DNA from: Escherichia coli | Lineage (GTDB): Bacteria; Pseudomonadota; Gammaproteobacteria; Enterobacterales; Enterobacteriaceae | Length of the DNA: 64,000 nucleotides | Assembly (NCBI RefSeq): GCF_003334305.1 | Contig: NZ_QOWS01000016.1 | Strand: one strand, 5' to 3' | Shown here: positions 2,683 to 55,135 of the stretch, piece by piece | Numbering within the stretch: the first letter of the stretch is position 1 | Layout of the letters: each line of letters starts with the position of its first letter | Position numbers and translations under genes: made by a program | The notes under the pieces: model-generated | Told to the model about the DNA's origin: nothing | The model's database searches: none | The model's input: the letters and a program-made list of their open reading frames with translations, nothing else

Positions 2683-4959
2683 ATGCTCAATCAAGAACTG
2701 GAACTCAGTTTAAATATGGCTTTCGCCAGAGCGCGCGAGCACCGTCATGAGTTTATGACCGTCGAGCACTTGTTACTGGCGCTGCTCAGTAACCCATCTG
2801 CCCGGGAGGCGCTGGAAGCGTGTTCTGTGGATTTGGTTGCGCTCCGTCAGGAACTGGAAGCCTTTATTGAACAAACCACACCCGTTCTGCCTGCCAGTGA
2901 AGAGGAGCGCGACACACAGCCGACGCTGAGTTTTCAGCGTGTACTGCAACGTGCGGTCTTCCATGTCCAATCCTCCGGTCGCAATGAGGTAACCGGTGCA
3001 AACGTTCTGGTCGCTATCTTTAGCGAACAGGAGTCGCAGGCGGCATATCTGTTGCGTAAACATGAAGTCAGCCGTCTCGATGTGGTGAACTTTATCTCTC
3101 ATGGCACGCGTAAAGACGAGCCGACACAGTCTTCTGATCCTGGCAGCCAGCCAAACAGCGAAGAACTAGCTGGTGGGGAGGAACGTATGGAGAATTTCAC
3201 GACGAACCTGAATCAGCTTGCGCGCGTGGGCGGAATCGACCCACTGATTGGTCGTGAGAAGGAGCTGGAGCGTGCTATTCAGGTTCTCTGCCGTCGCCGT
3301 AAAAACAACCCGCTGCTGGTGGGGGAATCTGGTGTCGGTAAAACCGCGATTGCGGAAGGTCTTGCCTGGCGAATTGTTCAGGGCGATGTGCCGGAAGTGA
3401 TGGCTGACTGTACGATTTACTCTCTCGATATCGGTTCTCTGTTAGCGGGCACTAAATATCGCGGCGACTTTGAAAAACGTTTTAAAGCGTTGCTCAAGCA
3501 ACTGGAGCAGGACACTAACAGCATCCTGTTTATTGATGAGATCCACACCATTATCGGTGCGGGGGCAGCGTCTGGTGGCCAGGTCGATGCGGCTAACCTG
3601 ATCAAACCGTTGCTCTCCAGCGGTAAAATTCGCGTAATTGGTTCGACAACCTATCAGGAGTTCAGCAACATTTTCGAGAAAGACCGTGCTCTGGCGCGTC
3701 GCTTCCAGAAAATTGATATTACTGAACCGTCGATCGAAGAAACTGTTCAAATCATCAATGGCCTGAAACCGAAGTATGAAGCGCACCACGACGTGCGTTA
3801 TACCGCAAAAGCGGTGCGTGCAGCGGTAGAGCTGGCGGTGAAATACATTAACGATCGTCATCTGCCGGATAAAGCCATTGACGTTATCGACGAAGCGGGC
3901 GCTCGCGCACGCCTGATGCCGGTAAGCAAACGCAAGAAAACCGTTAATGTGGCGGATATTGAGTCCGTGGTGGCCCGTATTGCGCGCATTCCAGAGAAGA
4001 GTGTTTCTCAGAGTGACCGCGATACCCTGAAAAACCTCGGCGATCGCCTGAAAATGCTGGTCTTCGGTCAGGATAAAGCCATTGAGGCGCTGACTGAAGC
4101 CATTAAGATGGCGCGTGCAGGTTTAGGTCACGAACATAAACCGGTTGGTTCGTTCCTGTTTGCCGGCCCTACCGGGGTCGGGAAAACAGAGGTGACGGTA
4201 CAGCTTTCGAAAGCGTTGGGCATTGAGCTGCTGCGCTTTGATATGTCCGAGTATATGGAACGCCATACCGTCAGCCGTCTGATTGGTGCGCCTCCGGGAT
4301 ACGTTGGTTTTGATCAGGGAGGTTTGCTGACTGATGCGGTCATCAAGCATCCACATGCGGTGCTGTTGCTGGACGAAATCGAGAAAGCGCATCCGGACGT
4401 GTTCAATATTCTGTTGCAGGTGATGGACAACGGTACGCTGACCGATAACAACGGACGCAAAGCGGACTTCCGTAACGTGGTGCTGGTGATGACCACCAAC
4501 GCCGGGGTACGTGAAACTGAGCGTAAATCCATTGGTCTTATCCACCAGGATAACAGCACCGATGCGATGGAGGAGATCAAGAAGATCTTTACACCGGAAT
4601 TCCGTAACCGTCTCGACAACATTATCTGGTTTGATCATCTGTCAACCGACGTGATCCATCAGGTGGTGGATAAATTCATCGTCGAGTTGCAGGTTCAGCT
4701 GGATCAGAAAGGTGTTTCTCTGGAAGTGAGCCAGGAAGCGCGTAACTGGCTGGCCGAGAAAGGTTACGACCGGGCAATGGGCGCACGTCCGATGGCGCGT
4801 GTCATCCAGGACAACCTGAAAAAACCGCTCGCCAACGAACTGCTGTTTGGTTCGCTGGTGGACGGCGGTCAGGTCACCGTCGCGCTGGATAAAGAGAAAA
4901 ATGAGCTGACTTACGGATTCCAGAGTGCACAAAAGCACAAGGCGGAAGCAGCGCATTAA
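2683..4959 (+). CDS. clpA: clpA, ATP-dependent Clp protease ATP-binding subunit (758 aa)
   Basis: ORF track 2668..4959; start trimmed to ATG 2683 ([10 protein letters not shown]) preceded by GGGGAGG SD; two AAA+ modules with Walker A GESGVGKT and GPTGVGKT. Confidence 0.96.
3176..3189 (+). promoter_or_regulatory. Internal ribosome-binding site plus in-frame ATG (Met169) inside clpA, consistent with internal initiation giving the shorter ClpA form
   Basis: GGAGG at 3176-3180 followed 6 nt later by in-frame ATG at 3187-3189 (…[11 protein letters not shown]…). Confidence 0.5.
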
Positions 4960-48882: not shown

Positions 48883-50115
48883 ATGTCGCTGCCGCACCTC
48901 TCCCTTGCTGATGCGCGTAATCTTCACCTTGCCGCACAAGGCCTGTTAAACAAACCCCGCCGTCAAGCGTCGTTGGAGGATATTCCGGCAACGATCTCCC
49001 GCATGTCCTTGCTGCAAATCGATACCATCAATATTGTTGCCCGTAGTCCATATCTGGTGCTTTTCAGTCGTCTGGGAAATTATCCTGCCCAGTGGCTGGA
49101 TGAGTCTCTGGCGCGTGGCGAATTAATGGAATACTGGGCGCATGAAGCCTGCTTTATGCCGCGTAGCGACTTTCGTCTTATTCGCCACCGCATGCTGGCA
49201 CCTGAAAAAATGGGCTGGAAATACAAAGACGCCTGGATGCAGGAACATGAGGCGGAAATTGCACAGTTAATTCAGCATATTCATGATAAGGGGCCGGTAC
49301 GTTCAGCCGATTTTGAGCATCCTCGTAAAGGTGCAAGCGGCTGGTGGGAATGGAAGCCGCATAAACGGCATCTGGAAGGTTTATTTACTGCCGGAAAGGT
49401 GATGGTGATTGAACGGCGCAACTTCCAGCGCGTTTATGATTTAACCCACCGTGTCATGCCTGACTGGGATGATGAGCGCGATCTCGTTTCGCAAACAGAA
49501 GCAGAAATCATCATGCTGGATAACAGTGCGCGTAGCCTGGGAATATTCCGCGAACAGTGGCTGGCAGATTACTATCGGCTGAAACGTCCGGCACTGGCGG
49601 CGTGGCGCGAAGCGAGGGCTGAACAGCAGCAAATCATTGCTGTGCATGTTGAAAAATTGGGCAATCTTTGGCTGCATGCTGATTTGCTGCCGCTACTCGA
49701 GCGTGCGCTGGCCGGAAAGCTCACTGCAACGCACAGCGCGGTACTTTCGCCTTTTGATCCTGTTGTCTGGGATCGCAAACGCGCAGAGCAGCTTTTTGAT
49801 TTTAGCTACCGGCTGGAGTGCTATACCCCAGCGCCGAAACGCCAGTATGGCTATTTTGTTCTGCCATTATTACATCGTGGGCAATTAGTTGGGCGAATGG
49901 ATGCCAAAATGCATCGCCAGACAGGCATCCTTGAAGTTATCTCTCTGTGGTTACAGGAAGGCATTAAACCAACGACAATGCTGCAAAAAGGGTTACGTCA
50001 GGCGATTACTGATTTCGCGAGCTGGCAGCAGGCAACGCGGGTGACATTAGGACGCTGCCCGCAAGGTCTCTTTACTGATTGCCGCACTGGCTGGGAAATA
50101 GACCCCGTCGCATAA
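48883..50115 (+). CDS. ycaQ: ycaQ, winged-helix (HTH_42 / AlkZ-like) DNA glycosylase family protein (410 aa)
   Basis: Protein MSLPHLSLADARNLHLAAQGLLNKPRRQASLEDIPATISRMSLLQIDTINIVARSPYLVLFSRLG recognisable as E. coli YcaQ. Confidence 0.9.
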   Translation: MSLPHLSLADARNLHLAAQGLLNKPRRQASLEDIPATISRMSLLQIDTINIVARSPYLVLFSRLGNYPAQWLDESLARGELMEYWAHEACFMPRSDFRLIRHRMLAPEKMGWKYKDAWMQEHEAEIAQLIQHIHDKGPVRSADFEHPRKGASGWWEWKPHKRHLEGLFTAGKVMVIERRNFQRVYDLTHRVMPDWDDERDLVSQTEAEIIMLDNSARSLGIFREQWLADYYRLKRPALAAWREARAEQQQIIAVHVEKLGNLWLHADLLPLLERALAGKLTATHSAVLSPFDPVVWDRKRAEQLFDFSYRLECYTPAPKRQYGYFVLPLLHRGQLVGRMDAKMHRQTGILEVISLWLQEGIKPTTMLQKGLRQAITDFASWQQATRVTLGRCPQGLFTDCRTGWEIDPVA

Positions 50116-50166
50116 ATGATTATGATAAGATTTATGCATTCATAACCCGATCCATCTGGAGGAACT

Positions 50167-51092
<926 letters not shown>

Positions 51093-51245
51093 TTTCACTT
51101 CACGACACTTCAGCCAATTTTGGGAGGAGTGTCGTACCGTTACGATTTTCCTCAATTTTTCTTTTCAACAATTGATCTCATTCAGGTGACATCTTTTATA
51201 TTGGCGCTCATTATGAAAGCAGTAGCTTTTATGAGGGTAATCTGA

Positions 51246-52139
51246 ATGGAACAGCTGCGTGCCGAATTAAGCCATTTACTGGGCGAAAAACTCAGTCGTA
51301 TTGAGTGCGTCAATGAAAAAGCGGATACGGCGTTGTGGGCTTTGTATGACAGCCAGGGAAACCCAATGCCGTTAATGGCAAGAAGCTTTAGTACGCCCGG
51401 AAAAGCCCGACAACTGGCATGGAAAACCACCATGCTGGCAAGAAGTGGGACTGTCCGTATGCCGACTATTTATGGTGTGATGACGCATGAAGAACACCCC
51501 GGCCCCGATGTCCTGCTACTGGAGCGGATGCGTGGTGTTTCGGTGGAGGCACCAGCCCGAACACCAGAACGCTGGGAACAACTCAAAGACCAAATCGTTG
51601 AAGCCTTACTGGCCTGGCACCGTCAGGACAGTCGCGGTTGCGTCGGCGCGGTCGACAATACTCAGGAAAATTTCTGGCCCTCATGGTACCGGCAACATGT
51701 TGAAGTGCTATGGACCACGCTCAATCAGTTCAATAACACCGGTCTGACGATGCAGGATAAGCGGATCCTGTTTCGCACTCGCGAATGTCTCCCGGCATTA
51801 TTTGAAGGCTTTAACGACAATTGTGTGCTGATTCACGGTAACTTCTGTTTACGCAGCATGTTGAAAGATTCGCGCAGCGATCAGTTACTGGCGATGGTCG
51901 GGCCGGGACTAATGCTTTGGGCACCGCGAGAATACGAACTGTTCCGACTAATGGATAATTCTCTGGCGGAAGATTTGCTCTGGAGTTACCTGCAACGCGC
52001 GCCAGTGGCGGAGTCGTTCATCTGGCGGCGTTGGTTGTATGTGTTATGGGATGAAGTTGCGCAACTGGTTAATACCGGACGATTTAGTCGGCGCAACTTC
52101 GATCTGGCATCAAAATCACTCTTGCCGTGGCTCGCCTGA
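51246..52139 (+). CDS. ycbJ: ycbJ, kinase-like (phosphotransferase-fold) protein of unknown function (297 aa)
   Basis: ORF 51246..52139; protein MEQLRAELSHLLGEKLSRIECVNEKADTALWALYD; synteny kdsB-ycbJ. Confidence 0.88.
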   Translation: MEQLRAELSHLLGEKLSRIECVNEKADTALWALYDSQGNPMPLMARSFSTPGKARQLAWKTTMLARSGTVRMPTIYGVMTHEEHPGPDVLLLERMRGVSVEAPARTPERWEQLKDQIVEALLAWHRQDSRGCVGAVDNTQENFWPSWYRQHVEVLWTTLNQFNNTGLTMQDKRILFRTRECLPALFEGFNDNCVLIHGNFCLRSMLKDSRSDQLLAMVGPGLMLWAPREYELFRLMDNSLAEDLLWSYLQRAPVAESFIWRRWLYVLWDEVAQLVNTGRFSRRNFDLASKSLLPWLA

Positions 52140-52895
52140 CGAACCTTTTAGCCACTGCCAGATACGGCCAAGCGTTTCATAGCCAACACGATCGCTATGC
52201 ATCAACCAGACCGGAGAAGGGATTGCCCGTTCCCACGGGTTAAGCGGCGAGTCGATGGCCAACTGATTCGCCGGGGCTGGTAGCGGATTTAACCCTTCCT
52301 GCTGAAAAAAGATCATCGCCCGCGGCAGATGTGATGCGGAGGTCACCAGCAGGAAAGGGGCGTCACCAATCGCCTGTTTCACTGCCGCAGCTTCTTCTTC
52401 GGTATCTTTTGGCAAATCCAGGGTGATAATTTGCTCGTGCGGCACGCCCAGCGATTGCGCAACTCTGGCACCTACTTCCGCTGTACTCACCGTATTGGTT
52501 TTTGCTACGCCTCCCGTGAAGATCAGTTTTGATCCCGGATTTTCGCGCCATAAGCGAATACCTTCATTCAGGCGTGGCAGACTGTTATTGATTAAATTAG
52601 AGCTCGGTGCCCACTGTGGGTTCCAGGTATAACCACCTCCGAGCACCACGATATAGTCCACTTTTTGCGAATTATTCCATGTCGGATAGGTGCTTTCGAT
52701 GGGACGCAGCAGGCGGTCGGCTACCGGTTGCAAACTCAATAACAAGAGTGCCAGCCACCCAATGCTAATAAAAATCTTCCCGGTTTTTTGAAAACGGCTA
52801 AACCACAGCAGCGCCAGGCCAGCGCCAATAATTAACAACATCAGCGGAAGTGGCAGCAACATATTGCCAATCACTTTTTTCAGTGTAAAAAGCAT
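52116..52895 (-). CDS. elyC: elyC (ycbC), DUF218-family envelope biogenesis protein (259 aa)
   Basis: N-terminal TM segment then DUF218-like domain; 3' end overlaps the ycbJ 3' end by 24 bp. Confidence 0.9.
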   Translation of the reverse strand: MLFTLKKVIGNMLLPLPLMLLIIGAGLALLWFSRFQKTGKIFISIGWLALLLLSLQPVADRLLRPIESTYPTWNNSQKVDYIVVLGGGYTWNPQWAPSSNLINNSLPRLNEGIRLWRENPGSKLIFTGGVAKTNTVSTAEVGARVAQSLGVPHEQIITLDLPKDTEEEAAAVKQAIGDAPFLLVTSASHLPRAMIFFQQEGLNPLPAPANQLAIDSPLNPWERAIPSPVWLMHSDRVGYETLGRIWQWLKGSSGEPRQE

Positions 52896-53030
52896 CCTTT
52901 CTGGTTCCTTTTTTAACCATATAGCAAGGGATCGCCAGCGATATTACACCAGACGGGTTCATTCTCGCCGTGGCTGTGACAAAATAGCGTCTTTATCAGA
53001 AAACGTCTTAGCCAACCGGTGGAGAAAGCA

Positions 53031-53816
53031 ATGCAGGATCGCAATTTTGATGATATTGCGGAAAAGTTTTCCCGTAACATTTACGGCACCACCAAAGGGC
53101 AGCTTCGACAGGCTATTCTGTGGCAGGATCTCGATCACGTGCTGGCGGAAATGGGCCCGCAAAAACTGCGTGTGCTGGATGCTGGCGGTGGTGAAGGGCA
53201 GACCGCAATCAAAATGGCCGAGCGTGGGCATCAGGTCATTTTATGCGATCTTTCTGCGCAGATGATCGACCGCGCAAAACAGGCGGCAGAAGCAAAAGGT
53301 GTGAGCGACAACATGCAATTTATACATTGCGCCGCTCAGGATGTTGCTTCGCATTTGGAAACGCCCGTTGATCTGATATTGTTCCATGCGGTGCTCGAGT
53401 GGGTGGCCGATCCCCGCAGTGTATTGCAGACCCTGTGGTCAGTGTTGCGTCCAGGCGGCGTGTTGTCGTTAATGTTCTACAATGCGCATGGTTTGTTGAT
53501 GCATAACATGGTCGCCGGGAATTTTGATTACGTGCAGGCGGGAATGCCGAAAAAGAAAAAACGGACGCTTTCGCCAGATTATCCACGCGACCCGGCGCAG
53601 GTTTATCTGTGGCTGGAAGAAGCTGGTTGGCAAATTATGGGTAAGACAGGCGTTCGCGTGTTTCATGATTATCTGCGCGAGAAGCACCAGCAGCGCGACT
53701 GCTATGAAGCATTACTTGAATTAGAAACGCGTTATTGCCGTCAGGAACCGTATATTACCCTGGGGCGTTATATTCATGTCACCGCGCGCAAACCGCAGAG
53801 CAAGGATAAAGTATGA
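53031..53816 (+). CDS. cmoM: cmoM (smtA), SAM-dependent methyltransferase (261 aa)
   Basis: ORF track 53019..53816 trimmed to [23 protein letters not shown]; SAM motif VLDAGGGEG. Confidence 0.9.
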
Positions 53817-55135
53817 GTGAATTTTCCCAGACAGTCCCCGAACTGGTTGCCTGGGCCAGAAAAAATGACTTCTCCATCTCGCTGCCGGTAGACCGACTCT
53901 CTTTTCTGCTGGCGGTTGCCACGCTGAACGGCGAGCGTCTGGATGGTGAGATGAGTGAAGGCGAGCTGGTGGATGCATTCCGCCATGTGAGTGATGCGTT
54001 TGAGCAAACCAGCGAAACCATCGGCGTGCGCGCCAATAACGCGATCAACGACATGGTGCGTCAACGTCTGCTGAACCGCTTTACCAGCGAGCAGGCGGAA
54101 GGGAACGCAATTTACCGTCTGACGCCGCTCGGCATCGGCATTACTGACTACTACATCCGTCAGCGCGAGTTTTCTACGCTGCGTCTTTCTATGCAGTTGT
54201 CGATTGTGGCGGGTGAGCTCAAACGCGCAGCAGATGCCGCCGAAGAGGGCGGTGATGAATTTCACTGGCACCGTAATGTCTATGCGCCACTGAAATATTC
54301 GGTAGCAGAAATTTTCGACAGTATCGACCTGACGCAACGTCTGATGGACGAACAGCAGCAGCAGGTGAAGGACGATATCGCCCAGTTGCTGAACAAAGAC
54401 TGGCGGGCGGCGATTTCCAGCTGTGAATTGTTGCTTTCGGAAACTTCCGGGACGCTGCGTGAATTGCAGGATACGCTGGAAGCGGCAGGCGACAAATTGC
54501 AGGCTAATCTGTTGCGCATTCAGGATGCGACGATGACCCATGACGATCTGCATTTCGTCGATCGTCTGGTGTTCGATCTGCAGAGCAAACTCGATCGTAT
54601 TATCAGTTGGGGCCAGCAATCCATCGACTTGTGGATTGGCTACGACCGCCACGTACACAAATTTATTCGTACCGCGATCGATATGGATAAAAACCGCGTC
54701 TTTGCTCAGCGGTTACGTCAGTCGGTACAAACCTATTTTGATGAGCCGTGGGCGCTAACTTATGCCAATGCCGATCGTCTGCTGGATATGCGTGACGAAG
54801 AGATGGCACTGCGCGATGAAGAAGTGACTGGGGAACTTCCTGAGGATCTGGAATACGAAGAGTTTAACGAGATCCGCGAACAGCTGGCGGCGATCATCGA
54901 AGAACAACTTGCCGTGTACAAAACCAGACAAGTGCCGCTGGATCTTGGTCTGGTGGTACGCGAATATCTGTCACAGTATCCGCGTGCACGTCACTTTGAC
55001 GTTGCGCGTATTGTTATTGATCAGGCGGTACGTCTTGGCGTAGCGCAAGCAGATTTCACCGGACTGCCAGCGAAATGGCAGCCGATTAATGATTACGGAG
55101 CCAAGGTACAGGCGCATGTCATCGACAAATATTGA
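53813..55135 (+). CDS. mukF: mukF, condensin kleisin subunit (440 aa)
   Basis: ATGA overlap with cmoM stop; protein [44 protein letters not shown]. Confidence 0.96.

Follow-up and report, generated by a model that had tools for sequence, protein, structure and literature searches.

The genes ycbJ and elyC of Escherichia coli run towards each other and share their last 24 bp, and the best explanation as a whole is probably that two real genes overlap tail to tail in an ordinary arrangement that has been stable in evolution. The window we analysed is a stretch of 64,000 nucleotides from E. coli (contig NZ_QOWS01000016.1), in which the overlap occupies positions 52116..52139 on both strands. An earlier note made from these letters had described the overlap, and the open reading frames, the stop positions and the RefSeq/PGAP gene ends all confirm it. 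The window has the gene order of the E. coli chromosome: kdsB (50346-51092, + strand) is followed by ycbJ, which encodes a YcbJ family phosphotransferase of 297 aa (51246..52139, + strand; ORF and RefSeq annotation), by elyC (also ycbC), which encodes the envelope biogenesis factor ElyC of 259 aa (52116..52895, - strand; ORF and RefSeq annotation), by cmoM (annotated start near 53031, end 53816, + strand) and then by mukF. Both overlapping genes are genuine protein-coding genes. YcbJ matches the Pfam APH family (APH-type kinase domain) over residues 64-249 and ElyC matches DUF218 over residues 80-231; variation in ycbJ across 73 species is of the coding type, low at codon positions 1 and 2 and high at position 3; ElyC is 259 aa long in most Enterobacteriaceae; same-length homologues of both proteins occur across genera, and ElyC has already been the subject of experimental papers.

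On the + strand the shared 24 bp encode YcbJ residues 291-297 (SLLPWLA) plus the stop, and on the - strand ElyC residues 253-259 (SGEPRQE) plus the stop. The description of the shared stretch as the last eight codons of each gene thus holds for its 24 bp, but each gene contributes seven sense codons and a stop rather than eight amino-acid codons. The codon boundaries of the two genes coincide across the strands: the ycbJ stop TGA (52137..52139, + strand) is the TCA codon of ElyC Ser253 on the opposite strand, and the elyC stop TGA (52116..52118, - strand) is the TCA codon of YcbJ Ser291. A second in-frame elyC stop, formed by the TCA of YcbJ Ser289 (52110..52112, - strand) and not conserved in other genera, completes a tandem TGA TTT TGA (52110-52118, - strand) opposite YcbJ codons Ser289-Lys290-Ser291. 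Since Lys290 is AAA in 70 of 73 loci, the elyC stop is nearly always followed by T.

The length of this overlap does not go beyond chance; the stability of the arrangement across the Enterobacteriaceae does. In the shared register an antisense stop can arise only opposite TTA, CTA or TCA codons, and these make up 15 of the 298 ycbJ codons (5%) and 10 of the 260 elyC codons. Given this scarcity, a mean run-in of about 20-26 codons is expected, so an overlap of seven codons is unremarkable; 75 convergent overlapping pairs have been counted in E. coli K-12 (Huvet & Stumpf 2014, PMC4161906). We surveyed 5426 complete E. coli genomes with a 1650-bp query covering ycbJ and elyC at 95% identity or above. 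The locus is present in all 5426, and in 5425 of them a single match covers at least 80% of the query. Our comparison across species used the closest 80 loci among the matches listed, all from Enterobacteriaceae, 79 of which are species-level loci that hold both genes. Among these listed matches the genes overlap in 75 of 79 loci, by 24 bp in 68, by 21 bp in five and by 36 bp in two. In 70 of 73 overlapping loci ycbJ ends with TGA; Ser291 is likewise TCA in 70 of 73, the other three having a compensating antisense stop next to it. An orthologous locus with 73% identity has an overlap of 21 bp.

Two records from these searches deserve separate mention. The sole E. coli genome without a full-length match is that of strain R9 (NZ_CP107164.1), where from about position 3863-3876 of the extracted locus (L089) onward a Mu-like prophage (Mor activator, gp16 family) is found about 8 nt upstream of the overlap; the prophage truncates ycbJ and parts it from elyC. 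The other is a record labelled Chryseobacterium sp. 18061 (CACSKA010000002.1; L057), which carries an Enterobacteriaceae-type ycbJ-elyC locus whose YcbJ has 85% amino-acid identity to that of E. coli, though the label is that of a Bacteroidota species. This record is probably contaminated or mislabelled.

The genes lie apart in four loci of the Citrobacter freundii complex, where 35-117 bp separate ycbJ from elyC. According to the locus sequences, the spacers (L006 1364-1480, L013 3895-3929, L018 3895-3987 and L028 3895-3952) consist of REP-like palindromes, e.g., GCCGGATGGCGGCGTGAGCGTCTTATCCGGCCTAC, and ElyC in all four ends in ...WQWLKGSEH. In two of these four loci Ser291 is encoded by TCT or TCG, and in one the Ala297 codon has changed from GCC to GCA. 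The drift at Ser291 differs between separated and overlapping loci (Fisher p=0.019, a value that is indicative only, because the separated Citrobacter lineages are related), and the codon changes are consistent with a relaxed dual-coding constraint. More distant contexts were represented by four single orthologous loci. In one with 42% identity (L086), a gap of 30 bp lies between the genes and the ElyC tail ends in KH; its spacer holds an 11-bp perfect hairpin (2030-2060; GGAATAACCGC...GCGGTTATTCC) that includes the ycbJ stop codon and may be a bidirectional terminator of the non-overlapping state. Another (L087) has a gap of 107 bp and an ElyC tail of unrelated sequence, and in a third (L084) elyC is absent from the locus. 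These arrangements indicate that the convergent adjacency is old and that the overlap was derived in the Enterobacteriaceae and is reversible without obvious harm. The persistence of the adjacency at 33-42% identity may hint at a functional or regulatory link.

The earlier note had also held that the overlap leaves no room for a terminator, and there is indeed no intergenic space and no canonical intrinsic terminator in or beside it. Our terminator scan detected no terminator-like hairpin within the overlap or immediately past it on either strand, and no GC-rich stem-loop with flanking A and U tracts, the hallmark of a bidirectional intrinsic terminator, occurs near 52116-52139. A combined promoter and terminator scan of the region returned no more sites than did shuffled sequences, an Rfam search of 50000-54500 at a permissive E-value gave no match, and the + strand RNA beyond the ycbJ stop has no stronger fold than shuffled sequences have (z=0.18). 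With no terminator between the genes, each transcript must run into the partner gene. On the - strand a strong fold follows the elyC stop (z=-3.4), owing to a 10-bp perfect inverted repeat in the 3' end of ycbJ (GAAGTTGCGC at 52053-52062 and GCGCAACTTC at 52091-52100), which lies downstream of the elyC stop; within this repeat GTTGCGCAAC is itself palindromic, and no U tract accompanies it. Across 77 loci the pairing of the repeat decays to 5-8 of the 10 positions with no compensatory changes, and only E. coli and its nearest relatives retain it. We considered the repeat as a conserved 3'-end stabiliser of the elyC mRNA and rejected this role because the pairing decays without compensatory changes; the repeat is probably a lineage-specific feature that would at most stabilise the 3' end locally.

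Most likely Rho ends the ycbJ transcript and, as we infer, the elyC mRNA too. A published Rho termination region on the + strand, at MG1655 v3 coordinate 972120 and classed as 'internal ycbJ', has a Rho score of 5.47 (p=5e-12), with 135 reads upstream and 18 downstream in untreated cells and 192 and 140 with bicyclomycin (Adams et al. 2021, PMC7815308, supplementary file 2). Placed in our window via v2 gene coordinates, plus 778, it spans approximately 51213..52413 and is centred near 51613, at a resolution limited by the 800-nt windows of that study. Because the Rho-dependent drop is centred inside ycbJ, much of the + strand transcription may end ahead of the overlap or close to it; this position suggests that ycbJ is poorly translated, or that read-through from kdsB is cut off there. 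The untranslated RNA that follows the elyC stop (51836..52115, - strand), antisense to the 3' part of ycbJ, is C-rich and G-poor: its C/G ratio in 80-nt windows is 1.2-1.9 throughout the first 280 nt after the stop, whereas on the + strand the ratio reaches 1.47 in only the first 80 nt after the ycbJ stop and is about 0.8-1.0 thereafter. To judge from this composition, the - strand stretch is a plausible candidate for a Rho loading region. Adams et al. report no - strand Rho region at elyC, and their curated Term-seq tables contain no 3' end of ycbJ or elyC (PMC7815308); the SMRT-Cappable-seq data hold no entry for either gene.

Upstream of ycbJ, a consensus scan picked out a promoter-like site on the + strand (GTGACA-17-CATTAT, 51186..51214) that agrees with the consensus at 9 of 12 positions, and a terminator-like hairpin on the same strand covers the last kdsB codons (51067-51090; AGCGCGTTCGCGCTGAAATGCGCT then AATTTCACTT). 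This hairpin might limit read-through from kdsB into ycbJ. A table published in Commun Biol in 2023 places a half-life event of the type 'iTSS_II' at v2 coordinate 971175, about 200 nt into ycbJ.

The proposal that convergent transcription makes complementary 3' ends holds up: such ends are necessary when both genes are fully transcribed, and they agree with a published excludon listing and with raised antisense reads. The pair ycbJ-elyC is on a list of 165 convergent excludons, seen in 50% or more of the 58 RNA-seq samples of MG1655 (ExcludonFinder, NAR 2025, PMC12288877). In the total RNA-seq of Huang et al. (2020, PMC7373196, Table S1c) the sense/antisense values in RPM are 36.4/5.4 for ycbJ in wild type, 32.7/2.0 in rnc-14 and 15.9/4.3 in rnc-38; for elyC they are 20.5/7.1, 11.0/5.9 and 16.7/6.7, and for kdsB 106/1.7, 63/1.1 and 38/1.2. 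From the same source, antisense reads amount to 13% of all reads (sense plus antisense) over ycbJ and 26% over elyC, with about 2% over neighbouring genes, and this abundance over both genes is what convergent read-through predicts. The earlier note had gone on to suggest that the complementary ends could link the expression of ycbJ to that of elyC, by transcriptional interference or RNase III-sensitive duplexes. The limited published data do not support such coupling. Sense RNA of ycbJ and elyC is no higher in rnc-14 or rnc-38 than in wild type, and dsRNA captured with p19 is 8-19 RPM for the two genes (PMC7373196); these are gene-level figures from one study, and a local or condition-specific effect could escape them. 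On these published gene-level values the locus is not a dsRNA hot spot.

The alternative that survives best, although we consider it unlikely, is that the pair works as a functional convergent excludon: transcription of ycbJ, or read-through from kdsB, would repress elyC, and vice versa, by polymerase collision and by RNase III cutting the 3' duplex, which would make expression of a putative kinase and of an envelope factor mutually exclusive. Membership in the published E. coli excludome speaks for this, but a pair whose coding sequences themselves overlap will be scored almost by default when both genes are expressed, and the authors of ExcludonFinder were unable to validate convergent excludons with p19 dsRNA data (PMC12288877). 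The excess of antisense reads over both genes, relative to their neighbours, also fits; however, the absence of a rise in sense RNA in the two rnc mutants and the mere 8-19 RPM of captured dsRNA do not, and collisions would be rare given the weak expression of ycbJ and elyC. The conservation of the arrangement in the Enterobacteriaceae, the convergent adjacency retained in distant orthologues and the generally higher synteny of excludon pairs could be read as signs of function, yet the C. freundii complex tolerates separation of the genes by REP elements. Moreover, 276 of 370 convergent operons in E. coli (about 75%) overlap at the RNA level (Conway et al. 2014), without known function.

As to which protein bears the cost of the shared sequence, YcbJ is the constrained partner. 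Its C-terminal KSLLPWLA is almost invariant in the species alignment, and the PWL motif is retained in orthologues with as little as 33% identity. In the AlphaFold2 model, YcbJ residues 282-296 are helical and the mean pLDDT of the final two 10-residue blocks is 93 and 88. ElyC is conserved through W246, L249, K250 and G251 (WQWLKG) and variable beyond; the substitutions in its tail (R/G, Q/E/K, E/Q/K/D) fall on synonymous third positions of ycbJ. In the AlphaFold2 model residues 252-259 of ElyC have a pLDDT below 50 and no secondary structure, and the tail lies outside the DUF218 match. The ElyC tail thus appears to behave as a passenger and is predicted to be disordered. The constraint is not wholly one-sided, in that the elyC stop, and possibly one or two tail residues, put a small limit on the synonymous sites of ycbJ: the entropy of the third position in ycbJ is 0.29 for codon 291, 0.46 for codon 294 and 0.10 for codon 297, whereas comparable four-fold and six-fold degenerate codons upstream have values of about 1.0-1.9. 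That codons 294 and 297 vary so little at their synonymous sites could be a sign that the ElyC tail is not entirely neutral; alternatively, selection may act on the sequence around the ycbJ stop. One YcbJ homologue of 295 aa (P0123) is similar only up to residue 221, its C-terminal part being unrelated; in some lineage the copy seems to have been frameshifted or pseudogenised.

These data bear on a second alternative, true dual coding, in which the ElyC tail is functional and selection on both proteins keeps the overlap. We give this somewhat less credence than a functional excludon. The unusually invariant third positions at ycbJ codons 294 and 297 would be expected under it, as would an elyC stop that stays within one codon across all 75 overlapping loci. 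There is also a fairly constant tail pattern, S-G-[EKQD]-P-G/R, but most of it is forced by the Ala, Leu, Trp and Pro residues of YcbJ. Against dual coding also stand the loci in which the tail has been replaced, with SEH in the four Citrobacter loci, KH in L086 and unrelated residues in L087, together with the predicted disorder of the tail (pLDDT <50) and its position outside DUF218. A further idea, that the overlap acts as an antisense switch tying the kinase-like protein YcbJ inversely to ElyC, for instance at low temperature or under envelope stress, is a long shot; if it were true, read-through from the kdsB/LPS operon would set ElyC levels. Finally, an annotation artefact with one stop codon or ORF wrong can be dismissed for practical purposes: we found no point in its favour, the reading frames fix the stop positions, and the earlier stop that could have undone the overlap does not exist, as the PGAP ends are identical and both frames have same-length homologues with conserved C-termini that end alike across genera.

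We therefore return to an ordinary tail-to-tail overlap, which probably came about as follows. The spacer that parted the convergent ycbJ and elyC would have disappeared in an ancestor of the Enterobacteriaceae, whereupon the elyC frame would have run antisense into the 3' end of ycbJ up to the first in-register stop, at the TCA of Ser291. YcbJ would dictate the shared sequence because a conserved helix at its C-terminus is completed by the last residues, and the last seven or eight residues of ElyC would be a disordered, dispensable passenger tail. Each transcript must continue into the partner gene, where it is untranslated antisense RNA and is most likely ended by Rho, with head-on polymerase collisions possibly contributing to the ending. 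The outcome would be low-level complementary 3' ends, i.e., a 'convergent excludon' by the RNA-seq definition, and the overlap would have little or no regulatory effect.

The overlap itself is already known: it is annotated in every RefSeq record, and the pair is on the published excludon list, so that the regulatory proposal amounts to the standard excludon hypothesis, already in print for ycbJ-elyC. A 2025 preprint notes the overlap and attributes the phenotype of the Keio ycbJ deletion to inactivation of elyC. What we add, from sequence comparison and structure prediction, is the apparent asymmetry of constraint, the predicted disorder of the ElyC tail and the control offered by the REP insertions, none of which is unexpected. 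The locus can serve as a textbook case of asymmetric constraint in a dual-coding stretch, and the REP insertion in the C. freundii complex as a natural control in which the dual-coding constraint is relaxed. Since their 3' ends are shared, neither gene can be cleanly deleted without damage to the other, and the phenotypes of ycbJ or elyC knock-outs consequently need complementation. Under the Keio design, in which the last six codons and the stop of the deleted gene are retained, each deletion would remove the stop codon of the partner. The practical upshot is caution with single-gene knock-outs at ycbJ-elyC; no new question is opened.

Among known systems, the closest match is the class of convergent overlapping pairs (Huvet & Stumpf 2014, PMC4161906), in which two protein-coding genes of opposite strands have a short piece of their 3' ends in common, with the overlap conserved among relatives. 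Such pairs arise when a stop codon or spacer is shifted or lost, and ycbJ-elyC is alike in this respect. Compared with very short overlaps at the stop codons, that of ycbJ-elyC is longer (24 bp), though within the expectation for antisense stops, and nothing essential differs. As in the convergent excludons (PMC12288877), the transcripts of ycbJ and elyC overlap and the pair is on the published list; however, mutually exclusive expression and RNase III processing define that class, and the limited published numbers for ycbJ-elyC indicate neither. The pairs with overlapping bidirectional intrinsic terminators, described from SEnd-seq, are likewise convergent, with transcripts that end in each other's territory, and a model of RNA polymerase collision has been put forward (bioRxiv 10.1101/2022.10.23.513370). 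Unlike these pairs, ycbJ-elyC lacks, at or near its overlap, a GC-rich hairpin with A and U tracts on its flanks. The suppression of antisense and read-through transcription by Rho (PMC7815308) finds a parallel in the bicyclomycin-sensitive drop on the + strand in ycbJ and in the C-rich, G-poor RNA after the elyC stop, whereas the reported position, at a resolution of about 800 nt, lies inside ycbJ and not past its stop.
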